DNA from: an uncultured Veillonellaceae bacterium
GTDB lineage: Bacteria > Bacillota > Negativicutes > JARBTT01
Length of the DNA: 64,000 nucleotides
Direction: 5' to 3'
NCBI GenBank assembly: GCA_963805085.1
Contig: CAWDTA010000002.1
Coordinates: 1,920,001 to 1,984,000 of the forward strand
The notes below the pieces were generated by a model. It was not told the DNA's origin and ran no database searches. It was given only the letters and a program-made list of their open reading frames with translations. This document shows positions 20,318 to 33,519 of this stretch, piece after piece. Within the stretch, counting starts at the first letter, position 1. Each line of letters begins with the position of its first letter. The position numbers were made by a program, and so were the translations under genes.

Positions 20318-23300
20318 ATGATAATGCAAATGACGAAGAATAAAGCGAAAATATTTAGAAAAAAAGTGATTGCCCTACTCACAGCAATCACTTTTACATT
20401 GCAGCCCATGCTGGTATCAGCGGAAGTAATCATCGATAAAAATGCCAGTCCAAATCAGCCGACAGTGCAAACTGCGTCCAATGGTGTACCAATTGTAGAT
20501 ATTGCCACGCCTTCTAACGCAGGGATATCTCACAACTACTATCAACAATTCAATGTCGATAAAATTGGCCTTATTTTTAATAATTCCCAAGGCATAAGTA
20601 AAACCCAGCTAGCTGGCTATATCCTAGGAAACCCAAACTTAGCAAACGGAACGGCTAGGATTATCTTAAATGAAGTAACCAGTACCAATCCCAGCTATTT
20701 AAAAGGGTACAGTGAAGTTGCAGGAAGCAATGCCGAAATCATCATCGCCAACCCCAATGGTATTTATGGAGACGGTTTTGGCTTTATCAATGCAAATCGA
20801 GCAATCCTTACAACTGGAAAACCTATCTTTGGCGGTGATGGCAGCTTAGAAGCCTTCAACGTAAATAGGGGTCAAATACAGATTCAAGGAGCTGGTTTAG
20901 ATGCCAGACAAACCGATCAAGTAGACCTGTTAAGTAAAGCAATTGAAGTCAATGCAGGTATTTGGGCAAAAAATCTCAATGTAATCGCAGGTAGCAATAC
21001 AATTGACCATAACACATTAGCTACGCAAAAAATAGAAACTGATCAGCCGCAAGAGCTAGTCGCTGTTGATGTAGGCGCACTAGGCGGTATGTATGCCAAT
21101 AAAATTAAGCTTATTGGTACAGAAACAGGTGTAGGTGTAAATCTTGGTGGAGATCTTTTAGCACAAAATAATATAGAAGTCAGCTCAGACGGTAACATAA
21201 AGTTACTAGGGAATACCTCTGCTAAAGGAGATATCAACTTAGCTGCCCAAAATGATATTGCGATAAGTGGAATAGTGAGTGCCGAGAAGAATATCAATTT
21301 GAGCAGTCAAGGACAAATCAATAATACTAGTAACCTGATTGCAGGAGAAAACAATACAATTGTAGCAAAATCTCTAATTTCCACTGGTAATATTGGTGCT
21401 GGAATTAGCAGTGATAATACACTAAAAGAAACTGGAAATCTTTCCATTTCCACAGTAGAAACCACTACTTTGCATGGCAATAATATAGCAGGGGGCAATC
21501 TATCCGTGCAAGGTGCCGCAATTGACCTGTCAGGAGCCACGACCACCGCTGGCGGCAATGTCAGTCTCACTGCAACTGCAGGCGATATTAACAATACTGG
21601 AGCTACTTTGCAAACCGATGGGGAGCTGTCAATAAAGGCTGCCCAAACTATAAAAAATGACAAAAATACAAATGGTACTGCTGGGCAAATTACGGCAAAT
21701 GCAGTTAACATTACGGCACAAAACATTAGTAACCGTGGCGGAAGTATGCAGCAGTCTGGTACAGGCGAAACTACTTTGACGGCTGCGAATAGTATAGATA
21801 ATACTGGTGGTATAATTGAAACCAATGGTTCGACTTTAAATATAAATAGTGATTCTATAGACAATACACAAGGGCAAATCCTTTACGCTGGTAGTGGAAA
21901 ACTCACAATGAACACTACAAACGGGATAATAAACAATAGCGGTAAAATAACGACAAATGGGCAATTAGACGTAATTGCTACGAATATAACCAATACAGGC
22001 GGTTCCATCACTACCCAGCAGGATATGAATATAAATAGCACAAGCGTAGTCAATGACCAGGGAACGGTGGTTGCTGGCGGGGCTATTAATGTCAATACCC
22101 AAAGCTTGAGCAATCAACAAGGCGCAGTCCAAGCAGGCAAAAGCCTTACCGTTACTGCACGGAGCATTGCTAACCAGAATGGTAGCATTACCAGTCTGGA
22201 TAATAGTGGACTGGCTATGAATGCGTTGCAAACCATTGATAATACCGCGGGTACGATCGGCGGTAATGGGGATGTGAAATTGACAGCATCTTCGCTCGTG
22301 AATAGCGCAGGCAAGGTACTTGCGAAAAAAGATATCAATGCAAATATTTCAGATAGCCTAGATAATACCAATGGTAAGATTACGGCTGAACAGGATGTCA
22401 ATATTGGAAAAACAGCAGCAACCTCTGTGATAAAAACTTCGCAGGGCAGCATGAGCGCAGGGAATAATCTCTTAGTAAATGCAGCTTCGTTTAATATTGC
22501 TGGCGGCAAATTGGTGGCGAATCGCGATATTAATTTAACAGGTAATAATTTAGTTGGCGCAGGTGTCATCACATCCGGACAGGATATCAACTTCAACCTG
22601 AATGGAGATTTTACATATTCATCTGGAATGAACTTCACCGCCAACCGAGATTTGAATTTTAATGTAGCAAATCTAACGAACTACAGCAAACTGTCTGCTG
22701 TACGCAATCTCAAGGTTTCGGCAACCAATGTTACCAATGGCACTGGTGCTACACTGCAAGGTGGAACAGGGCTAACTATTAGCGCTGCTGGTGATTTAAC
22801 TAACAGTGGTACGGTGCAGAGCAGTGATGTTAATCTATCCGGTAATACGATCACCAATACCGGTGCAGTCTTTGGGGATACGTTGACCGTCACAGCAGAT
22901 ACTGTGCAAAATAACGGTGATAAAGCGGTCATTGCAGCAACAAAAGAAGCGAATTTTTATGCGAAGACATCACTGGAAAATAAAGATGGTGCTTCGATTT
23001 ATAGCAGTGGCAATATAAATATTGCTGGTAGCTCAAAGAAGGATAACAATGGCGAATATGTAGATAAAACCAATACAGTGTTAAATCAATCTGCGACTAT
23101 AGAAGCAGAAAAAGATATCAATATAAGTGCAAATACGTTGACGAATAAGAAACGAGAATTTACTACAGAGCAGCAAGTTGTATCGGATGAGATATATATT
23201 ACTCCAGATGATCATGGTAAAATAGGTTTTTGGCCTAGTACTGGTATAATTTTTAAAAATAGGAATGATGAATATAGTAAGTATATGGTATCAGGATCGT

Positions 23301-26300
23301 TATGGAAAAAGCAAATTGGGACAGGTACTAGTAATCGTGGACAGAGTAGTCCTATAAGTTATCCAATATATGGATATGGGGCAACGTTTCTCGTAGGACA
23401 AACAATAACAGAAACAAAAATTACCAAGGACTCCCCGGAAGGGAAAATTATCTCTGCTCATAACATAAAACTACAAACTGATACTATAACCAATGATAAT
23501 AGTTCAATTTTAGCTGGTGGTAGTCTTAATGCAGTGGGAACGGTTAATAATACAGCAACAGGATATACTCGTGTTACTACGCAGCATTTTGCAGATTTAA
23601 TCAATTATACTGACAAAGGATATAAGAAAAAGACCTATGATGAAAACGCTTATGCACAACTTCCAGGACAAACAGCTATCTTCAGTGGCGGTCAAGCAGT
23701 TAACATCCAAGGGACAAATATTAATAATATCACTACTTCTCCGGTAAATACCCCGACAATTAACAGCAGTGTTCCGATTGAAAATACCCAAACATTGCTG
23801 CCAGTAGCCAAGGATACGAATACGACTTCGGCTAAACAGACGGTTGCTACTCAAATTACACTTCCATCAAATGCGATGTTTAAAATCAATACGGAACCAA
23901 GTGCGCATTATTTGGTAGAAACCGATTCCCGATTTACCAACTATGGAAACTTTGTTTCCAGCGATTATATGCTGGAAAAATTGAATATTGATCCAGCTAA
24001 GACAGCAAAACGTCTAGGTGATGGCTTTTATGAACAAAAATTGGTGCGTGAACAAGTCACCGAACTTACTGGACGATATACATTAAGCGGCTACTCTTCG
24101 GCAGAAGAACAATATAAGGCGCTACTAACCAATGGTGTAACCTATGCAAAAGAGTTCAATCTACAGGTAGGCGTAGCCTTAACTGCCGATCAGATGGCAA
24201 ACCTGACCTCGGATATTGTGTGGCTGATAGAAAAAGAAGTAAATGGGCAGAAGGTACTCGTGCCTCAAGTGTATCTCGCTCCTTCAAAAAATATTGAGCT
24301 TAAGGCTAATGGTGCAGTGATTGCGGCAGATAATGTACAGATTACTGCCAGTGGCGACGTCAAGAATGCTGGGGCGATTAAAGCTACTGAAAGTGTAAAT
24401 ATACAAGCCGTAAATATCGCTAACTATGGCGGCAACATTGATGGCGGCAAGAGCACACAGCTAACTGCGGATAAAAATATCCTTAATATTGGTGGTTCTA
24501 TCAATGGTGATCAGACCCAGGTAACAGCGGGTGGGGATGTTAAAAATGAAACCATATCCTCTACCAGAACTTTACCGTTTATGACACAAACAACCGCTGG
24601 TAATACTGCAAGTATCAATGCAAGAGAGAATCTGACTATTAAAGCAGGGCAAGATATTTCTAACACTGGAGCGCAGATCACTGCGGGAAAAGATGTCACC
24701 ATCACCGCAGATGGAAACTTTACATCTGATAGTGTAAAAGAACAAGAACGCATTTCATTTGAAAAATCATCCTACCTAGACGATAACGTGAACAATGTAG
24801 TTAGTGGTATTCATGGAGGTAACAATGTAAGTATTACTTCTGGGAAAGATACCAATTTACAGGGAGCACAGATTACAGCTGATCATGATCTGACTGTAGC
24901 AGCTGGCGGCAATGTTAATGTCTCTGCGGTGAAAGATGAAGATCATTTTGCTGAAAAGTCATCTAATAGGTTATCTAAAGTAAAATCTTCCTCCAAAGAT
25001 GATGTAAGTAATATCGTAAGCCATATGCAAGGAGGTAACAATGTAAGTATTACCTCGGGTAAAGATACAAATTTACAAGGAGCGCAGGTTACAGCAGGTA
25101 CTGACCTTACTGTGTTGGCCGGTGGTAATATCAATATTTCCGCTGTGAAAGACGAGACAATTTCTGATGAAACAGTTGGAATCAGTCATGGCTGGAAGAG
25201 AACCAGAACGGATGATGAGACCGTTATTGGCAGTACTCTCCAAGGTGGCGGAGCAGTCACAGTGAAGACTACCTCAAAACTTCCCGATGGAACTACGATA
25301 CCTGATGCTGAAAATCGCGGGAATATTACCATTGCAGGCAGTACCATCGAAAGTGATAAGAGTAAGGTAACCATTACAGCAGAGAAAGATCTTACGATAC
25401 AAGAAGTCACAGAAAAACATGAATCCCTAGTACAGACGCATACCAAACATAAGGGAGCTTTTTCTAGTAAGACTACTGATACAATGGATCATTCGTTGAT
25501 TAACGAGGTGAAAGGCAGCACTATCTCTGGCGATGAGGTAGCTGTCTCCTCTGGTAAAGACTTGACAGTGAAAGGCAGTAATGTTGTTGGAACAAAGGAT
25601 GTAACACTTACTGCTTCCGATGATGTCAACATTACCAGTGCCAAAGAAACAGGCAATGATGAACACTATTCCTATACAAAAAAATCTGGTCTTTTCAGCG
25701 GTGGCGGGCTAGGCTTTACCATAGGAACGCAAAGTACGAAAACAACAACCGATGAAAAAACATTAGATCAAGTTGGCAGTACGGTTGGTTCGATTGATGG
25801 AAATGTAACTGTCACTGCTGGTAATAAGGCAAATAGTGCGGGTACGGCATTTGTTACTGGTGAAGATTTAAACATTAAAGGTAAAGACGTTACCATTGAT
25901 AACACGATCAATACGGTTGATAGTCAGACCAAATACGAATTCAAACAAACAGGACTTAGCGTATCCTTAGGTGGCGGTGTTGTCGATACTGGAAAGAGCG
26001 CCTTAAACAATATTGATCGTGCAGGTGAAGTAAAAGACGAACGGCTTAAAACGCTTCACGAATATCAAGCTTATAAAGATATTGAAAAAATCAAAGATGC
26101 CAAGGGAAACTTGAACTCAGGCGTTGCTGTTAGCGTCAGCATCGGCAGCACGAAAATATCATCTGAACAGACTGAGCATGTAGAGACTGTCAATACCTCT
26201 GACATTAGTGCAGGTGGCAATGTAAAAATTAAAGCCACTGACGGCGACTTGAACCTGAAAGGAACGAAAATTGATGCGGTAGATATCACCCTAGATGCGA

Positions 26301-27892
26301 AAAAAGATCTCAATATTGAAGCGGCAGAGAACAAACAGCAGACGACGAGTCATACAAGTTCCTCTTCCTGGTCAGTAGGAGGTTCAGTTGGATTAGCCAA
26401 CAAAGGTGTTAGTTACTTTGGACAGTTTAATTCTGCGAAGGGCAATGAAAATGGAGATGCTACCACGAATACGGAAAGCGTAATTAATGCGAGTGGTACC
26501 TTGACAATGAATTCGGGTAAGGACACTAACATTGATGGTTCTCAGGTAAAAGGAGACAAAATAGTAGCTGATATCAAAGGTGACCTGAACATAGCCAGCA
26601 AGCAGGATACAGATAACTATACAGAGAATAACAAAAGTACAGGATTTGGATTTAGTACTGAGAAAGTAGGAGGAAAACCTCTAGAACCTGGTCAGCAGGG
26701 GCCGATCAATAAAACCACGACGACTACAAACGTAACTGGCTCTTCTAGTAAAGGAGAAACCGATTCTACGTATGCCAGTGTAACAGATCAAGCAGGTATC
26801 TTTGCAGGTAAGGACGGATTTGATATCAATGTAGGCAAAAATACCGATCTAAAAGGTGCGGTCATTTCGAGTGATGCTACGCCAGATAAGAATAAGATCA
26901 GCACAGATACGCTAACTTTCTCCAATATGGAAAACAGGGCGAAATATAACTCAAGTAATACGGGGCGAAGTTATAACACAGATCCTAAGGCTAAATTAAA
27001 TGAACAGGGATTTATTCCTACTGCTAGTATGCCTGTATCTGGCGATGCCAGTAGTACAACGAAGTCCGCAATTTCACTAGGTAAGATTGAGGTGAAGAGT
27101 AATCCAAATCAAGATATTAGCGGACTTAGTAGAGATACTACCAATTCATTGAACGCATTAGGAAAAATATTTGACAAACAAACGGTTAAAGAACGACAGG
27201 AATTAGCAGGTTTATTTGGTCAAGTGGCATTTGAAGAAATTCATAAGTTAAGTGTAAAGAATGGGTGGAAAGATGGAGATCCTCAAAAAGTAGCACTCCA
27301 TGCTCTAGTTGGTGGAATAATGTCTGAGCTTACTGGAAGTGGGTTTATAGCTGGTGCTGAAGGTGCAGGCTTCAATGAACTTGTACAGAAGGAATTGTCG
27401 AAGATCACAGATCCTGCACTCCGTCAGTGGGCTAGTTATATTATAGGATCAGCTACTGGTACAACAGGTCGCATTGTTGCGTTATATGGAACGAAGTATA
27501 ATGATCTTGCTAGTTTAGCATTAGAGATACCAGGAGTGAAAGCGCTTTTAGCGGCAGCAGGAATTGTAATTGTTATAGATGCTGGAGTGCAAGTTTTAAA
27601 GAATGAAGCAGGAGAAGTGATAGCTAGTTGGTCTCCAACAGTAGGTGGCTGGATAGATAGTGCGGGAGATACCATAGATGATTTGGTTTATTGGGCAAAA
27701 CAGTCAGGAAAAGAAAAAGCTAATGATGTTCCATCATGGGCAAAAGGAAATCAGCCAACTGAAGAAGAAAGTGGCAAGGACTTTGCAAAACGTTTAATGG
27801 ATGAAAAGTACGGTGAGGGTAATTATGATAAGGGACCAGGATCTGAATATAATAAAATTAGAAAATGGGGAGATAGAGGGTTTAATAAGTAA
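20318..27892 (+). CDS. CdiA-like filamentous haemagglutinin exoprotein with C-terminal toxin domain
   Basis: Signal peptide, TPS domain (NNS..NPNL..IILNEV..ANPNGI), FHA-1 repeats, YLVETD/RLGDGFYEQKLV/LVPQVYL region, FHA-2 repeats, YGTKYN pre-toxin-like motif and a distinct C-terminus. Confidence 0.92.
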   Translation: MIMQMTKNKAKIFRKKVIALLTAITFTLQPMLVSAEVIIDKNASPNQPTVQTASNGVPIVDIATPSNAGISHNYYQQFNVDKIGLIFNNSQGISKTQLAGYILGNPNLANGTARIILNEVTSTNPSYLKGYSEVAGSNAEIIIANPNGIYGDGFGFINANRAILTTGKPIFGGDGSLEAFNVNRGQIQIQGAGLDARQTDQVDLLSKAIEVNAGIWAKNLNVIAGSNTIDHNTLATQKIETDQPQELVAVDVGALGGMYANKIKLIGTETGVGVNLGGDLLAQNNIEVSSDGNIKLLGNTSAKGDINLAAQNDIAISGIVSAEKNINLSSQGQINNTSNLIAGENNTIVAKSLISTGNIGAGISSDNTLKETGNLSISTVETTTLHGNNIAGGNLSVQGAAIDLSGATTTAGGNVSLTATAGDINNTGATLQTDGELSIKAAQTIKNDKNTNGTAGQITANAVNITAQNISNRGGSMQQSGTGETTLTAANSIDNTGGIIETNGSTLNINSDSIDNTQGQILYAGSGKLTMNTTNGIINNSGKITTNGQLDVIATNITNTGGSITTQQDMNINSTSVVNDQGTVVAGGAINVNTQSLSNQQGAVQAGKSLTVTARSIANQNGSITSLDNSGLAMNALQTIDNTAGTIGGNGDVKLTASSLVNSAGKVLAKKDINANISDSLDNTNGKITAEQDVNIGKTAATSVIKTSQGSMSAGNNLLVNAASFNIAGGKLVANRDINLTGNNLVGAGVITSGQDINFNLNGDFTYSSGMNFTANRDLNFNVANLTNYSKLSAVRNLKVSATNVTNGTGATLQGGTGLTISAAGDLTNSGTVQSSDVNLSGNTITNTGAVFGDTLTVTADTVQNNGDKAVIAATKEANFYAKTSLENKDGASIYSSGNINIAGSSKKDNNGEYVDKTNTVLNQSATIEAEKDINISANTLTNKKREFTTEQQVVSDEIYITPDDHGKIGFWPSTGIIFKNRNDEYSKYMVSGSLWKKQIGTGTSNRGQSSPISYPIYGYGATFLVGQTITETKITKDSPEGKIISAHNIKLQTDTITNDNSSILAGGSLNAVGTVNNTATGYTRVTTQHFADLINYTDKGYKKKTYDENAYAQLPGQTAIFSGGQAVNIQGTNINNITTSPVNTPTINSSVPIENTQTLLPVAKDTNTTSAKQTVATQITLPSNAMFKINTEPSAHYLVETDSRFTNYGNFVSSDYMLEKLNIDPAKTAKRLGDGFYEQKLVREQVTELTGRYTLSGYSSAEEQYKALLTNGVTYAKEFNLQVGVALTADQMANLTSDIVWLIEKEVNGQKVLVPQVYLAPSKNIELKANGAVIAADNVQITASGDVKNAGAIKATESVNIQAVNIANYGGNIDGGKSTQLTADKNILNIGGSINGDQTQVTAGGDVKNETISSTRTLPFMTQTTAGNTASINARENLTIKAGQDISNTGAQITAGKDVTITADGNFTSDSVKEQERISFEKSSYLDDNVNNVVSGIHGGNNVSITSGKDTNLQGAQITADHDLTVAAGGNVNVSAVKDEDHFAEKSSNRLSKVKSSSKDDVSNIVSHMQGGNNVSITSGKDTNLQGAQVTAGTDLTVLAGGNINISAVKDETISDETVGISHGWKRTRTDDETVIGSTLQGGGAVTVKTTSKLPDGTTIPDAENRGNITIAGSTIESDKSKVTITAEKDLTIQEVTEKHESLVQTHTKHKGAFSSKTTDTMDHSLINEVKGSTISGDEVAVSSGKDLTVKGSNVVGTKDVTLTASDDVNITSAKETGNDEHYSYTKKSGLFSGGGLGFTIGTQSTKTTTDEKTLDQVGSTVGSIDGNVTVTAGNKANSAGTAFVTGEDLNIKGKDVTIDNTINTVDSQTKYEFKQTGLSVSLGGGVVDTGKSALNNIDRAGEVKDERLKTLHEYQAYKDIEKIKDAKGNLNSGVAVSVSIGSTKISSEQTEHVETVNTSDISAGGNVKIKATDGDLNLKGTKIDAVDITLDAKKDLNIEAAENKQQTTSHTSSSSWSVGGSVGLANKGVSYFGQFNSAKGNENGDATTNTESVINASGTLTMNSGKDTNIDGSQVKGDKIVADIKGDLNIASKQDTDNYTENNKSTGFGFSTEKVGGKPLEPGQQGPINKTTTTTNVTGSSSKGETDSTYASVTDQAGIFAGKDGFDINVGKNTDLKGAVISSDATPDKNKISTDTLTFSNMENRAKYNSSNTGRSYNTDPKAKLNEQGFIPTASMPVSGDASSTTKSAISLGKIEVKSNPNQDISGLSRDTTNSLNALGKIFDKQTVKERQELAGLFGQVAFEEIHKLSVKNGWKDGDPQKVALHALVGGIMSELTGSGFIAGAEGAGFNELVQKELSKITDPALRQWASYIIGSATGTTGRIVALYGTKYNDLASLALEIPGVKALLAAAGIVIVIDAGVQVLKNEAGEVIASWSPTVGGWIDSAGDTIDDLVYWAKQSGKEKANDVPSWAKGNQPTEEESGKDFAKRLMDEKYGEGNYDKGPGSEYNKIRKWGDRGFNK

Positions 27893-27907
27893 ATGGAGGT
27901 TTTTGAT

Positions 27908-28144
27908 ATGGGAGTAGTATATATTCTTCAACATAGTTATGAAGTGGGGGAAGATGGACAATTTGATGAGATAAAAATGATAGGAGTTTATTCTTCCAGA
28001 GAAAATGCAGAAAAAACAATAGCTCGTTATAAAATGCTTTCAGGTTTTAAAGATTATCCTACAAGTTGCTTTTATATTAGTAAATATGAAATAGATAAAG
28101 ATCATTGGACAGATGGTTTTATTAAACCTGATGAAGCATTATAG
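27908..28144 (+). CDS. Putative cognate immunity protein (CdiI-like)
   Basis: Small acidic ORF immediately after the toxin stop, GGAGG RBS, followed by a terminator. Confidence 0.8.
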   Translation: MGVVYILQHSYEVGEDGQFDEIKMIGVYSSRENAEKTIARYKMLSGFKDYPTSCFYISKYEIDKDHWTDGFIKPDEAL

Positions 28145-28170: not shown

Positions 28171-28210
28171 AAGCGAGGTCAGTGGACGTAAAAATCCGCT
28201 AACCTCGCTT
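28171..28210. terminator. Terminator between immunity gene and Zn microprotein
   Basis: aagcgaggtcagtgga...tccgctaacctcgctt; the paralogous copy at 30819 shows a compensatory stem change. Confidence 0.75.
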
Positions 28211-28310
28211 GTTTCTTATAGTGTCTTCTAGTGACACCTAATTCATAGGTAATAAATTCCTATTAACAATACCATTTCAATTAATCTAGAAAGTCTGAGT
28301 AACTCTGAAT

Positions 28311-28478
28311 TTAAAACGATTTCGACTCATTACCTCCACAAAACGGACAACTACCCCCATATCCATTACCAGAGCAATTAGAACAATAAGTACCACCACA
28401 TTCTTTGCATTTCATCAAAGAACCCATACAAGGTGCATCACTACCACAATTCGGACATTTTCTCACAGTATCATACAT
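28311..28478 (-). CDS. 55-aa Cys-rich zinc-ribbon microprotein (4 CxxC), copy 1
   Basis: MYDTVRKCPNCGSDAPCMGSLMKCKECGGTYCSNCSGNGYGGSCPFCGGNESKSF; AAAGGAGG RBS; the four differences from copy 2 are all synonymous; below the ORF-track cutoff. Confidence 0.85.
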   Translation of the reverse strand: MYDTVRKCPNCGSDAPCMGSLMKCKECGGTYCSNCSGNGYGGSCPFCGGNESKSF

Positions 28479-28585
28479 ATCAATAAAACCTCCTTTTTAA
28501 TAAGAATAATTCTAATATATCAAGTATTGTTGTAAACGAAAACGTTAAAATTGATGTTGAATAAAATATCATCAATCTAGTTATA

Positions 28586-28612
28586 GACAGAAGGGACGTT
28601 CCTTTTTTGACA
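28586..28612 (-). repeat. REP-like motif upstream of RAYT copy 1
   Basis: gacagaagggacgttccttttttgaca, inverted relative to 29386-29414. Confidence 0.8.
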
Positions 28613-28647
28613 ACAAGATGATATACTCGTTGTAAGAGGTGATAAAA

Positions 28648-29388
28648 ATGTCGAGAGAAGCAAGAAAATTAAGTAAAAGTGGATTTTATCATATAGTATT
28701 TCGAGGAATCAATCATCAAAATATCTTTGAAGAAGAACAAGATTTTGAATATATGCTAGAGATATTCAAAAAATTAAAACAAGAAATGCAGTTTGAAATA
28801 CATGCATATTGCTTAATGACAAATCACGTACATATTTTATTAAAAGAAAGTCAAACAGGAGACATATCAACAATATTAAAAAGGTTACTAACAAAATATG
28901 TAATGAAATTTAATAAAAAATATCAAAGAAGCGGAGCTTTGATAGGAAGTAGATATAAAAGTAAAGTGGTAGAAGTAGACGAATACTTTATTCCATTGAT
29001 AGTATATATTCATCAAAACCCATTAAGAGCAGGAATCGTAAAAAAGCTAGAAAACTATAGATATAGTAGTTACTGTGAATATATAGGGAAAAGAAAATTT
29101 GTCGATGTAAAATTATCCTTAGAAATGTTAGGGAAAAAAGAATGGGTTAAAGCACATCAGCAATTGGTAGAAAATAAATTTCAAGTAGAAGGTCGTAAAA
29201 AGCTAAGTGAAGAAGAAATTCGGCAGAAAATCCTAAAAGATACGAATAATATAGAACCGCAAGGAATAGGAACACTCGAAAAAACAGAAAGAGATAGAAT
29301 ACTACAAAAGTTAAAAAACTCGGGATTATCAATAAGAGAAATAGAACGAGCAACAGGGATATCAAGAGGGATTGTAGCTAAAAGTTGA
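28648..29388 (+). CDS. REP-associated tyrosine transposase (RAYT, HUH Y1) with C-terminal HTH, copy 1
   Basis: YHIVFRG, AYCLMTNHVH (HUH), YIHQNP (catalytic Tyr), YRYSSY, terminal HTH (GLSIREIERATGISRG). Confidence 0.9.
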   Translation: MSREARKLSKSGFYHIVFRGINHQNIFEEEQDFEYMLEIFKKLKQEMQFEIHAYCLMTNHVHILLKESQTGDISTILKRLLTKYVMKFNKKYQRSGALIGSRYKSKVVEVDEYFIPLIVYIHQNPLRAGIVKKLENYRYSSYCEYIGKRKFVDVKLSLEMLGKKEWVKAHQQLVENKFQVEGRKKLSEEEIRQKILKDTNNIEPQGIGTLEKTERDRILQKLKNSGLSIREIERATGISRGIVAKS

Positions 29389-29414
29389 CGAAAAAGGAAC
29401 GTCCCCTAGTGTCC
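29386..29414 (+). repeat. REP-like motif downstream of RAYT copy 1
   Basis: tgacgaaaaaggaacgtcccctagtgtcc overlapping the RAYT stop codon. Confidence 0.8.
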
Positions 29415-30083
29415 TCAAATGTGTTCAATTAGTGCTGCCATCGGCATGTTAGCGATATCTTCGGTAGAAAGAAAATCAGTTAAAACCGAAGAAGCGGCAG
29501 CGCCATAGTTATTAGAAAAGGGCTGCTTATCATCGTCGAGAATAGAAAACTCACTAAATTTAAGAAAGATGTTTGAAAGCATATAGGTTTTCTCACGAGT
29601 AAGAGAACGAGCTATATGTAATCGATGGCGAGTTAGACGCTGCAAAGCTAAAAATTGACTGCCGCGCCAAGAAGCAGAGGTAATTCTGCCAACTCTAGCA
29701 AAATCAGCGATAATAAAAGAATCAATTGCATCAGTTTTGCCTAGACCGATATAAGACTTTTTGTAATTGGCAACCATCTTGGGATTTATACAGTAAACAT
29801 GAGTGTCAAATGGCATCAATAATTCACAGGAAGATAAGTAGTTAGCTATGTGAATACCATAGAAAGATGTAGATTCTAAGGCAACAACCAGCTTATTAAG
29901 ATCATGATTTTCAGAAAAAAAATCATGAAACTTTTTAGCCATTTCAACTGCACCTGGTTGATTATTGGGCACAGTAAATCGCAACAGTTTTTGCTCTTCA
30001 AAATCAATAGCGCAAACGACATTTTCGCGGGAACTTATGTCAATTCCCACAAACAAAGTAGAAAGAAGATCCGCCTTCTTCAT
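29415..30083 (-). pseudogene. IS110 DEDD recombinase, C-terminally truncated (222 aa)
   Basis: FVGIDIS, ALESTSFY, INP and KTDAIDS RuvC-like DEDD motifs; lacks the C-terminal catalytic-Ser Tnp domain. Confidence 0.88.
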
Positions 30084-30127
30084 AGAAATGTCACCACCTT
30101 TCTGGCTGAGAATAAGAAAGATAGAAA

Positions 30128-30360
30128 AGGAATACCCTGATCTTATTCACTGACCGCAGCCTCGCATAATAAGCATTCATCTGTGAAAGTAAATTTGCTG
30201 GAAAGCTTTCGCCAAGAGACGCAACATCTGTGTAAGCGGTATTTGATGAATAAGGCAGGCGTCAAGCTTTAAAAGCAATAACCAAAAGGTTTCGCAAGGA
30301 GGATAAGACGTTACCTTTGCTAAAATCTCTTAGAAATATTTTAGCATCAAGGGATTCCTT
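30128..30360 (-). ncRNA. Candidate IS110 bridge RNA
   Basis: Closing stem ggaataccctgat / atcaagggattcc; 30160-30173 is a 13/14 reverse complement of the IS end 30420-30433; 30297-30303 equals the flanking target AGGAGGA at 30431-30437. Confidence 0.65.
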
Positions 30361-30444
30361 TAAGCATTAAAAAATAAAAAATAAGTTTTGTAAACAATGG
30401 CGGATTATTGTTTACAAAACTTATTATACGAGGAGGAATAATAA

Positions 30445-30750
30445 ATGAAAAAAACAGTAACACTTAAGTATAGTGAAGACGATATACTCGAAATTGTAAC
30501 AGAATATATGGCGGAAAAATATAAGTTCGGAGAGTATCGTTCTAAATCGATGATTTTTGGAACTCCTGGAAAAGATTTAAGATTAGTAGCTACCATTGGA
30601 GATTTAGACGATGAAAGTATTAGAGATAAAAATTTGGAAGAAGTTGATTTAAAAATTGATTATAATGGAGAACATTCAAAAATTAAAGGTATGGATAAAA
30701 ATGATTTATTAATGCTAAAAAATCGGATGAAAGATTTAAAAGAAATTTAG
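30445..30750 (+). CDS. Acidic hypothetical protein, possible orphan immunity protein
   Basis: GAGGAGG RBS; occupies the same position before the repeated terminator as the immunity gene in unit 1. Confidence 0.7.
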   Translation: MKKTVTLKYSEDDILEIVTEYMAEKYKFGEYRSKSMIFGTPGKDLRLVATIGDLDDESIRDKNLEEVDLKIDYNGEHSKIKGMDKNDLLMLKNRMKDLKEI

Positions 30751-30958
30751 GATAAGTGATATTTTTCAGTGTTTCAAAAATTCGAATATTGTCTATACAG
30801 GAGAAAATAGGTAAATAAAAACGAGGTCAGTGGACGTAAAAAATCCACTGACCTCGTTTTCATCTCAGGTGCTCTCTAGTGATACTTAATTAATAGGTAA
30901 TAAATTCCTACAAACAATACAATTTCAATTAATCTAGAAAATCTGAGTAACTCTGAAT

Positions 30959-31126
30959 TTAAAAAGACTTAGACTCATTACCTCCACAAAATGGACAACT
31001 ACCCCCATATCCATTACCAGAGCAATTAGAACAATAAGTACCACCACATTCTTTGCATTTCATCAAAGAACCCATACAAGGTGCATCACTACCACAATTC
31101 GGACATTTTCTCACAGTATCATACAT
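30959..31126 (-). CDS. 55-aa Cys-rich zinc-ribbon microprotein, copy 2
   Basis: Same protein as 28311-28478, with synonymous CCG/CCA, TCG/TCT (twice) and AAA/AAG changes. Confidence 0.85.
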   Translation of the reverse strand: MYDTVRKCPNCGSDAPCMGSLMKCKECGGTYCSNCSGNGYGGSCPFCGGNESKSF

Positions 31127-31233
31127 ATCAATAAAACCTCCTTTTTAATAAGAATAATTCTAATATATCAAGTATTGTTGTAAACGAAAACGTTAAAATT
31201 GATGTTGAATAAAATATCATCAATCTAGTTATA

Positions 31234-31260
31234 GACAGAAGGGACGTTCCTTTTTTGACA
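31234..31260 (-). repeat. REP-like motif upstream of RAYT copy 2
   Basis: Identical to 28586-28612. Confidence 0.8.
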
Positions 31261-31295
31261 ACAAGATGATATACTCGTTGTAAGAGGTGATAAAA

Positions 31296-32036
31296 ATGTC
31301 GAGAGAAGCAAGAAAATTAAGTAAAAGTGGATTTTATCATATAGTATTTCGAGGAATCAATCATCAAAATATCTTTGAAGAAGAACAAGATTTTGAATAT
31401 ATGCTAGAGATATTCAAAAAATTAAAACAAGAAATGCAGTTTGAAATACATGCATATTGCTTAATGACAAATCACGTACATATTTTATTAAAAGAAAGTC
31501 AAACAGGAGACATATCAACAATATTAAAAAGGTTACTAACAAAATATGTAATGAAATTTAATAAAAAATATCAAAGAAGCGGAGCTTTGATAGGAAGTAG
31601 ATATAAAAGTAAAGTGGTAGAAGTAGACGAATACTTTATTCCATTGATAGTATATATTCATCAAAACCCATTAAGAGCAGGAATCGTAAAAAAGCTAGAA
31701 AACTATAGATATAGTAGTTACTGTGAATATATAGGGAAAAGAAAATTTGTCGATGTAAAATTATCCTTAGAAATGTTAGGGAAAAAAGAATGGGTTAAAG
31801 CACATCAGCAATTGGTAGAAAATAAATTTCAAGTAGAAGGTCGTAAAAAGCTAAGTGAAGAAGAAATTCGGCAGAAAATCCTAAAAGATACGAATAATAT
31901 AGAACCGCAAGGAATAGGAACACTCGAAAAAACAGAAAGAGATAGAATACTACAAAAGTTAAAAAACTCGGGATTATCAATAAGAGAAATAGAACGAGCA
32001 ACAGGGATATCAAGAGGGATTGTAGCTAAAAGTTGA
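31296..32036 (+). CDS. REP-associated tyrosine transposase (RAYT), copy 2
   Basis: Protein identical to copy 1. Confidence 0.9.
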   Translation: MSREARKLSKSGFYHIVFRGINHQNIFEEEQDFEYMLEIFKKLKQEMQFEIHAYCLMTNHVHILLKESQTGDISTILKRLLTKYVMKFNKKYQRSGALIGSRYKSKVVEVDEYFIPLIVYIHQNPLRAGIVKKLENYRYSSYCEYIGKRKFVDVKLSLEMLGKKEWVKAHQQLVENKFQVEGRKKLSEEEIRQKILKDTNNIEPQGIGTLEKTERDRILQKLKNSGLSIREIERATGISRGIVAKS

Positions 32037-32123
32037 CGAAAAAGGAACGTCCCCTAGTGTCCTAGTGTCCCTAGTGTCCTAGTGTCCGAATTTTTGAAGC
32101 ACTGCAAACCGTCCCCTTGTCTT
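32034..32123 (+). repeat. REP-like motif with 4x tandem ctagtgtc(c) tail, plus a second REP-like motif
   Basis: aaaggaacgtccc(ctagtgtc[c])x4, then gcaaaccgtccccttgtctt at 32104-32123. Confidence 0.8.
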
Positions 32124-32233: not shown

Positions 32234-32779
32234 TTATTGAACGGTAATGCTTGGATCCCAGTAGTAGTAACCCTGTAATTCCTGAGTCTCTCTGTTTTCA
32301 GCCAACTCATAGAGACCAAATTCCACATAAAAATCTTCTTTTCCAGCTTTTCTTACCTGTGAATCATAACTAATGAAATCTCCTTTAATGGTACTTGGAG
32401 GCAATCCATTTGAAGATTCAACATTTGGTGCTACCGCCTGTGCTCTCTCTACCAGATCAGTTGTAAAGTTGTTAAAGACTTGGTCTTTTTGCCAATGTTT
32501 AATTCCATAGACAATTACAGCGTCATCTGAGTTCCCGGATATTGAAGTACCCCTGAACGACACATGATCTCCAACATGGGCTTTAAAATTCAAATCGGCA
32601 GTTCCTTGTCCACTGACAACTTCACCGTTGCAAATCATGTACTGACGACTATGATCAATGCCGGTAGGCTTTACAGGGTCTTTGCTTGGGTTAGGATTAT
32701 GTGCTTTGACATAGTCGGTATCAATTACAATCATTACATTAACATTCTGATCATTTGATTTTTCATCCATATTAGGCAT
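32234..32779 (-). CDS. PixA/AidA inclusion-body family protein
   Basis: VMIVIDTD, PTGIDH, GQGTADL, VGDHVSFRGTSISGNSDDAVIVY and GYYYWDP motifs as recalled for this family. Confidence 0.82.
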   Translation of the reverse strand: MPNMDEKSNDQNVNVMIVIDTDYVKAHNPNPSKDPVKPTGIDHSRQYMICNGEVVSGQGTADLNFKAHVGDHVSFRGTSISGNSDDAVIVYGIKHWQKDQVFNNFTTDLVERAQAVAPNVESSNGLPPSTIKGDFISYDSQVRKAGKEDFYVEFGLYELAENRETQELQGYYYWDPSITVQ

Positions 32780-32982
32780 ATTAGTTTCTCCTATCTATTA
32801 AAAATTGTGTTTATCACATATTTATGGTGTGCAAAATTACGCTTTCTATGCGCATTGCTTATAAAAAAACATCAAAATTTAGAGGCTGATTACAAAAAAA
32901 TTTAACCATAAATACAAAGAATGCGCATACACACCCATCATCCACCTCCTTACAAGAGTGGGGATGATGGATGGTCTTAATT

Positions 32983-33519
32983 TCAGATTGAACGATTTAA
33001 TACCTGAACGGTAATGCCTAAATCCCAATAGTAGTACCCCTTCAGCTGCTGGGTCTGTCCGTCTTCAGCCAACTGATAGAGACCAAATTGGACATAGAAA
33101 ATTTCGCATCCAGCCCTTCTTACCTTTGAATTATAACTAATGAAATTTCTTCTAATGTTGCTTGGGGGTAACCCATTTTGAGTATCCATATTCGGGACTA
33201 CCGCATGTGCTCTCTCTACCAGTTCGGTTGTAAAGGAATCAAGGGCTGTGTCTCCTTGCCAATGTTCAATTCCATAGACGATTATAGCGTCATCTGAATT
33301 TCCGGATATAGAAGTCCCCCTGAACGATATATTATCTCCAATATAGGCTTCGAATTGCAAATCGGCAGTTCCTTGCCCACTGATAACACCTTGGGAACCA
33401 CCACAAATCATGAACTGACTATTATGATCAATGTTGGTAGGTTTTTTAGGGTTTATGCTTAGATTAGGATAATGTCTTTTGAGATAGTCGGTATCAATTA
33501 CAATCATTACATTAAACAT
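32983..33519 (-). CDS. PixA/AidA inclusion-body family paralog (ancestral start at 33551 is out of frame)
   Basis: Clear paralog of 32234-32779; 1-nt deletion between the conserved ATG-CCT start and the body. Confidence 0.75.
   Translation of the reverse strand: MFNVMIVIDTDYLKRHYPNLSINPKKPTNIDHNSQFMICGGSQGVISGQGTADLQFEAYIGDNISFRGTSISGNSDDAIIVYGIEHWQGDTALDSFTTELVERAHAVVPNMDTQNGLPPSNIRRNFISYNSKVRRAGCEIFYVQFGLYQLAEDGQTQQLKGYYYWDLGITVQVLNRSI

Follow-up and report, generated by a model that had tools for sequence, protein, structure and literature searches.

Copies of an IS110-group insertion sequence (IS) lie in antisense orientation at the 5′ border of the Shine-Dalgarno (SD) sequences of host genes, likely because the predicted bridge RNA of the element carries an anti-SD-like target guide. 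The copy in the window (the whole stretch of 64,000 nucleotides of bacterial DNA that was analysed) is truncated and lies on the minus strand, where only the left end and the N-terminal half of the transposase remain. Comparing this copy with full copies and relatives, we consider it highly probable that the element moves by IS621-type bridge recombination at a CT dinucleotide, guided to TTAA-AG-GAGGATA-like sites, which would place it antisense just upstream of the SD. The observations that carry this reading are the ends and the CT core, the preference for SD sites, a covarying RNA structure, and the covariation of guides with insertion sites.

Results

A truncated IS110 element and its full copies

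The minus-strand open reading frame (ORF) at 30083-29415 encodes the N-terminal half of an IS110 DEDD transposase (PF01548, E 8.6e-30). It ends after codon 222 of 426, in keeping with the truncated recombinase originally predicted; D15, E70, D118 and D121 are retained, S341 has been lost together with the Tnp domain, and the right end of the IS is missing too. Three full copies were found elsewhere in the genome, two on contig C3, of which one spans 104379-106126, and one on C1 (1,747-1,748 bp, 99.9-100% alike), beside three relics of a related element. The full copies encode a transposase of 426 aa that scores 229 bits against NF033542 (cut-off 140) and combines the RuvC-like DEDD and the Tnp domain with catalytic serine of the IS110 family, of which the window copy is without the Tnp half. 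D15, E70, D118, D121 and S341 are invariant in an alignment of 18 relatives. The non-coding region is 349 nt long 5′ of the gene and 118 nt long 3′ of it, as in the IS110 rather than the IS1111 group, and no end-to-end inverted match indicative of sub-terminal inverted repeats was detected by eye or by self-BLAST, the latter being insensitive to very short repeats.

The sequence of the window copy stops at 29416, at the end of a block of 1.25 kb (28171-29415) that we infer to have caused the break. A second instance of this block, 98% identical, is present at 30819-32063. The block carries a small ORF rich in Cys and also a RAYT-like Y1 transposase gene, on whose flanks are GGAACGTCCC palindromic motifs, of which contig C2 has 15 and the other contigs none, and TAGTGTCC repeats.

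Alignment of the four copies, which are identical inward and diverge outward, gave a left end of CT followed by CGTATAAT, with the CT core at 30431..30432 (minus strand); the boundary predicted at about 30432 was thus borne out. The right ends of the three full copies read TTGACATATTACCAGATTG followed by CT. The core is therefore CT and not CCT, because a G occupies position −1 of the right end; of the CT/CCT core first proposed, the CT was retained and the CCT rejected. CT is present at both ends of all three full copies, as expected of conservative insertion at a 2-nt core. A single CT was seen in the empty site of a relative, ISBth166, in several plasmids, of which one sequence was read through. 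For the IS110 copy of genome G060, no empty site was found in 20 genomes of its family, among which only G060 itself matched.

Insertion at Shine-Dalgarno sequences

All seven left ends in this genome (four copies and three relics) adjoin an SD and a start codon on the opposite strand. In the four copies the opposite strand reads AG-GAGGAATAATAA-ATG, AG-GAGGAATTAAA-TTG, AG-GAGTAGTGCAT-ATG and AG-GAGAGTTATT-ATG. The host target in the window spans 30433..30447 (plus strand) and consists of the remainder of the SD (GAGGA), the spacer and the ATG of the gene at 30445..30750 (plus strand), whose 101-aa product has no match among the families of Pfam or NCBIfam. The left-target 7-mer occupies 30433-30439. 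The genes behind the three other copies encode 318, 355 and 242 aa.

Relatives were collected from GTDB, metagenomes and further genomes, kept at a transposase identity of at least 40%, searched for their ends by pattern, and collapsed for duplicates to 146. Site statistics were taken from the 84 left ends whose flank was 170 nt or longer, counting as a hit a start codon with an ORF of at least 50 codons located 7-15 nt from the core. A gene start was present at this distance in 65 of the 84 sites; in the controls it was present in 9% (4,470 random AG sites) and in 1 of 108 (right flanks). The starts lay at 10-12 nt in 62-63 of 84, and the distance of 12 nt between core and ATG in the window copy falls inside this peak, which holds 62 of the 65 hits. 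Without the ORF filter, a start at 10-12 nt was found in 85 of 95 sites (16% in the control). The prediction that other copies would also sit at ribosome-binding sites (RBSs), which these sites could have overturned, was upheld by 4/4 copies, 3/3 relics and 65/84 related sites.

Three sites, all with a single shared flank in genome G040, were donor-like rather than SD. They belong to L046, L073 and L078, which comprise two IS110 elements (89% and 41% identical to the query) with one common left flank. Each has a divergent and unrelated IS110 gene next to it, and these may be donor-like insertions or chimeras.

Insertion was predicted to be antisense and to leave the RBS intact. The antisense orientation was confirmed, and AG-GAGG with its spacer is kept by the gene. 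An intact RBS does not, however, amount to a harmless insertion: the DNA that lay upstream is separated from the gene, and at 11 of the 55 sites that could be reconstructed an ORF is clipped or contains the insertion. Both flanks are available for these 55 sites: in 17 an upstream ORF of the same strand ends within 80 nt, in 27 there is no such ORF end, 6 clip the last codons of an ORF, and 5 are inside one. A right flank of TTTT-AA, which had also been predicted, is absent from all three full copies, and we discarded the predicted target word TTTTAAAGGAGGA, which has no support from covariation at +5 and +6 (see below) and occurs once in the genome and in no full copy.

A predicted two-loop bridge RNA

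The non-coding end is predicted to encode an IS621-like bridge RNA with two loops. When 53 non-coding regions were folded (RNAalifold seed), two loop modules emerged: a predicted target-binding loop at 30257..30316 (minus strand; helices 3-6, with two-sided changes) and a predicted donor-binding loop at 30143..30253 (minus strand; helices 7-9). A 47-pair structure was hand-drawn from one sequence and the RNAalifold seed; tested on the same sequences, which biases the result in its favour, it was paired in 88.9% of cells (72.9% in shuffled alignments), with two-sided compensatory changes in 36 of the 47 pairs and a covariation of 0.50, compared with 0.22 for shuffled and 0.08-0.12 for slid controls. 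The guide segments lie inside the internal loops of this conserved structure, as had been anticipated. The single-sequence fold of the whole 350 nt gave a z of −4.3, which is owed to the end hairpin, and that of the 205-nt core (30128-30332) was unremarkable (z −0.06), with the target loop mis-paired. A search of Rfam returned no family at threshold, only three chance matches with E of 0.35-0.38.

The strings tcctcct (30303-30297), ttttaaag (30274-30267), cttattatgcgagg (30173-30160) and TATAAT (30428-30423), quoted in the original prediction, are all present at these positions of the minus strand. The guides follow the predicted order of left target guide, right target guide, left donor guide and right donor guide (LTG-RTG-LDG-RDG), with the true LDG at 30231-30223. 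Covariation with target or donor was found for LTG, RTG, LDG and the handshake bases, and the RDG was nearly invariant.

Target guides covary with insertion sites

The left target guide TATCCTCCT (30297..30305, minus strand) comprises 7 nt and the core, is anti-SD-like, and resembles the 3′ end of the 16S rRNA of this genome, GATCACCTCCTTT. The register rule was fixed on the RNA alone, and L095, which has a disrupted target loop, was left out of the guide tests. Over 96 sites, guide and own site agreed at 473 of 672 positions, versus 362±9 after shuffling; when each distinct guide was counted once, 255 of 364 agreed, versus 188±7. Neither total was reached in any of 5000 shuffles, counts that overstate the significance because kin are not independent. 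The string tcctcct, originally pointed out as identical to the flanking target, belongs to a segment that covaries with the flanking site, at five left positions (six at weaker support).

The right target guide TTAAAG (30267..30272, minus strand) comprises the core and 4 nt, and covaries with the right flank at +1 to +4, with 83, 62, 54 and 49 matches of 94 compared with 66.5, 44.2, 29.5 and 35.9 after shuffling. No covariation was detected at +5 and +6 (32 and 31 of 94 versus 29.4 and 28.2 shuffled). The predicted guide ttttaaag is therefore in the right place but 6 nt rather than 8 nt long. Where right guides predicted CC, CC was present at 7/7 sites.

Left target guides occur in two registers (60 and 52 of 112). 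GGAG right-guide variants, which represent a register shift, were located 10 nt from a start in 7 of 8 cases. A 6-nt run of the SD word AAGGAGGTG was predicted by 64 of 82 distinct guide pairs, kin among them not being independent, compared with 5% of random guides with AGG fixed. The fit between guide and site is loose, with 3, 4 and 6 mismatches in the full copies of this genome. In a quick protein tree of 92 rows, identical or near-identical transposases were found with different guides, and their sites mostly followed the guide, L116 being an exception. L116 and L119 have near-identical flanks and different guide pairs, and the L116 site fits the guide of L119, which may point to action in trans or to conversion of the guide. 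In L003, the copy on C1, a 1-nt deletion in the left target guide (TCTCCT) extends the match to its own flank by one base. This deletion was not counted as evidence, because the total is three mismatches either way and an assembly error is possible.

Other explanations of these sites were weighed against guided insertion. The RNA might recognise a CTCCTT-like word without being aimed at starts, intragenic insertions being purged by host selection, which we regard as possible though rather doubtful. About half of 751 guide-like sites in this genome lie inside ORF bodies, and of the 382 that remain, by crude gene calls, 240 (63%) have a start at 7-15 nt and 162 (42%) have one at 10-12 nt, so that part of the site pattern would follow from SD frequency and survival; the 11 of 55 sites that touch ORFs also speak for this explanation. 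The observed sites nevertheless reach 77% (65/84) at 7-15 nt, their spacing is tighter than the 42% of the control at 10-12 nt, and the guides stay SD-complementary across 41-100% transposase identity, even after the register shift. Since survival would itself select SD-like guides, selection is largely compatible with guided insertion at the SD, and survival bias probably shapes both the visible sites and the retained guides.

That the recombinase protein itself reads an SD-like word, the RNA matches being incidental, is extremely improbable. Target positions −3 to −1 (CTC) are nearly fixed and −1 falls outside the covariation test, as such a protein would allow, but covariation at five left (six weaker) and four right positions, together with the different sites of identical or near-identical proteins that carry different guides, argues for the RNA. 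It is also very unlikely that the anti-SD-like loop acts mainly as a translational regulator pairing with the SD of its own transposase or of the host. The loop does resemble the 16S tail, and ISPpu9 is a precedent for RNA control of transposase translation (PMC8450116); yet the guides fit insertion sites (mean 9.6 of 13, n=81) better than their own transposase RBS (7.0, n=112), and they covary with insertion sites.

Donor guides and handshake bases

The left donor guide ACAGATGTT (30223..30231, minus strand) was absent from the guides listed in the original prediction. Its CAGAT part matches positions −7 to −3 of the right end, and over 27 distinct combinations such guides matched at 128 of 135 positions versus 84±6 after shuffling; L142 and L106, in which a segment is deleted, were left out of the donor tests. 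The pairing of this guide is shifted by one base relative to the core, an offset that suggests a bulged DNA base near the core.

The right donor guide lies in the region 30160..30173 (minus strand), where it had been proposed from a 13/14 match of cttattatgcgagg to the IS end. The place was correct, and most of the match is peculiar to this copy: the conserved part is the 5-nt GCGAG (30165-30161). Of 39 distinct guide/donor pairs, 25 showed contiguous pairing over 5 nt and 1 over 13 nt, and a 13-nt donor guide was rejected as a feature of the family. The guide is nearly invariant, with one swap in which donor CTTG is matched by guide CAAG.

The last G of the 14-mer (30160) occupies the handshake-guide position and faces C at target −1. 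This base after the right donor guide is nearly invariant, being a G that faces target −1 C in 85 of 95. Its counterpart in the target loop, the C at 30266 (minus strand) next after the right target guide, faces G at donor −1, and the base at this position was complementary to donor −1 in 27/27 distinct combinations, including three swaps.

Putative promoters and terminator

When the ends of the full copies are joined, TTGACA and TATAAT are brought to a 17-nt spacing, and this arrangement is conserved in the sequences of relatives. It would constitute a sigma-70-type promoter across the joined ends, with its −10 in the left end (TATAAT, 30423..30428, minus strand), as predicted, and its −35 in the right end that the window copy has lost. 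A terminator-like hairpin of 19 bp with a U-tract, on the IS-sense strand at 30370..30425 (minus strand), overlaps this −10 and was identified in full copy L001. Similar left-end hairpins fold in most distinct left ends, and a strict scan recovered them in 31 of 72 elements. By a crude scan of the 72 elements, 48 terminator-like sites were on the IS-sense strand versus 9 on the host-sense strand. No outward promoter toward the host gene was found in the left end by a consensus scan.

An extended −10-like motif, TGCTAAAAT (30338..30346, minus strand), is a candidate internal promoter for the bridge RNA. Of 95 distinct non-coding regions, 84 contain the pattern TGnTAnnnT some 20 nt ahead of the target loop. 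It varies as a promoter would, with the forms TATGAT, TAAAAT, TACAAT, TATAAT and TATACT, and its A and T are invariant in alignment A2. It may serve as an internal promoter for the bridge RNA, and it also overlaps RNA stems. Judged by sequence, the conserved internal extended −10 and the left-end terminator appear to be newly described here.

Discussion

By analogy with IS621, an intact copy would excise as a circle whose joined ends form the TTGACA-17-TATAAT promoter, and the recombinase would bind the bridge RNA. The left target guide (TATCCTC-CT) would base-pair on the strand that bears the SD, and the right target guide on the four bases upstream of the SD, giving a predicted host-strand target of TTAA-AG-GAGGATA. 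The donor loop would pair with the element's own joined ends, the handshake bases would aid strand exchange, and recombination at CT would place the element just upstream of AG-GAGG, so that SD, spacer and start codon remain with the host gene. The left-end hairpin would block host read-through into the transposase, and with few host-strand terminators, host transcripts could cross the element to the intact RBS. The internal extended −10 may yield bridge RNA without circularisation. The window copy is immobile, as its right end and catalytic serine are missing, and could still supply RNA in trans.

These features would give an RNA-level explanation for the old observation of IS110 elements at translation starts: by imitating the word that the ribosome itself recognises, a selfish element would reach a landing site that is common and mostly intergenic. 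From the natural swaps of target, donor and handshake guides, rules can be read for a clade of bridge RNAs far removed from IS621, and these might serve genome engineering in Gram-positive bacteria. More tentatively, and with somewhat less than an even chance in our estimation, a clade of bridge recombinases spread across the Bacillota maintains an anti-SD mimic as target guide under selection, re-programmed in sequence and register and still directed to translation starts, within an insulated one-way design in which a left-end terminator and few host-strand terminators are combined with an internal promoter making RNA from integrated, even broken, copies. If true, the selected mimic would make of the element a natural 'gene-start-seeking' integrase riding in host transcripts, with the RBS left joined to the gene.

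RBS targeting by IS110 elements is already known from IS900, and the element is not a new kind of system. Doran reportedly stated in 1997 that IS900 'targets translation initiation signals'. IS900 inserts between the RBS and the start codon, whereas the present element inserts upstream of the SD, and SD and start codon stay together. A second difference is the antisense hed ORF of IS900: no hed-like antisense ORF on the host RBS was found here, the longest antisense stop-free frame being 88 codons, and frames of at least 200 codons occurred in 9 of 72 relatives. In IS900 of Mycobacterium avium subsp. paratuberculosis, hed borrows the upstream RBS, and the target CATG-N6-TCTCCTT is a reversed RBS and start codon (PMC8141618).

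The closest mechanistic models are the bridge recombinases IS621 and ISCro4 (PMC11208160, PMC11208158; PDB 8wt6, 9t56). Common to these and the present element are a 5′ non-coding end with a target loop followed by a donor loop in the order LTG-RTG-LDG-RDG, the CT core, the junction promoter (for IS621, PMC11208158), the DEDD and Ser residues, and handshake bases 3′ of the right guides. The protein is distant (426 aa, E 4e-9). Unlike IS621, which targets a REP-type site, the element targets the SD, its right target guide covaries over 4 nt past the core, its LDG is one base off register with a presumed DNA bulge, and it has in addition the left-end terminator, the internal extended −10 motif and two registers of the left target guide. 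ISBth166 of Bacillus thuringiensis, listed in the tree table of Durrant 2024, is a different IS110 element with a transposase about 45% identical, and it shares a TTGACA-N13-CT right end, a CT-CG-TATATT left end and a ATTCCTCCT segment in the 5′ non-coding end; at the one site examined it was inserted at the SD of a TasA-family gene. Our literature search, which most subscription papers lay outside, found no paper describing the target or RNA of ISBth166 and none linking bridge RNA to SD targeting. A preprint that models 32,190 bridge RNAs (10.64898/2026.10.21.760802) does not mention SD targeting in the parts consulted. Further background is found in PMC11187229, PMC7823733, PMC12892987 and PMC13216065.

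Several related or neighbouring features were also noted. A mini-element of about 230 bp at C2:1165300-1165530, located at an SD and ATG, consists of an IS110-related left end, the internal −10 motif, a target loop and a right end, with neither donor loop nor transposase, and two further relics are found at C2:1166409-1166536 and C2:625629-625674 (left-end hairpin only). Within the window, 20318-28144 holds the gene of a haemagglutinin-repeat-like protein of 2,524 aa with a small DUF7336 gene behind it, a pair that by resemblance looks like a polymorphic toxin with its immunity gene, and two PixA-like genes are located at 32234-33519.
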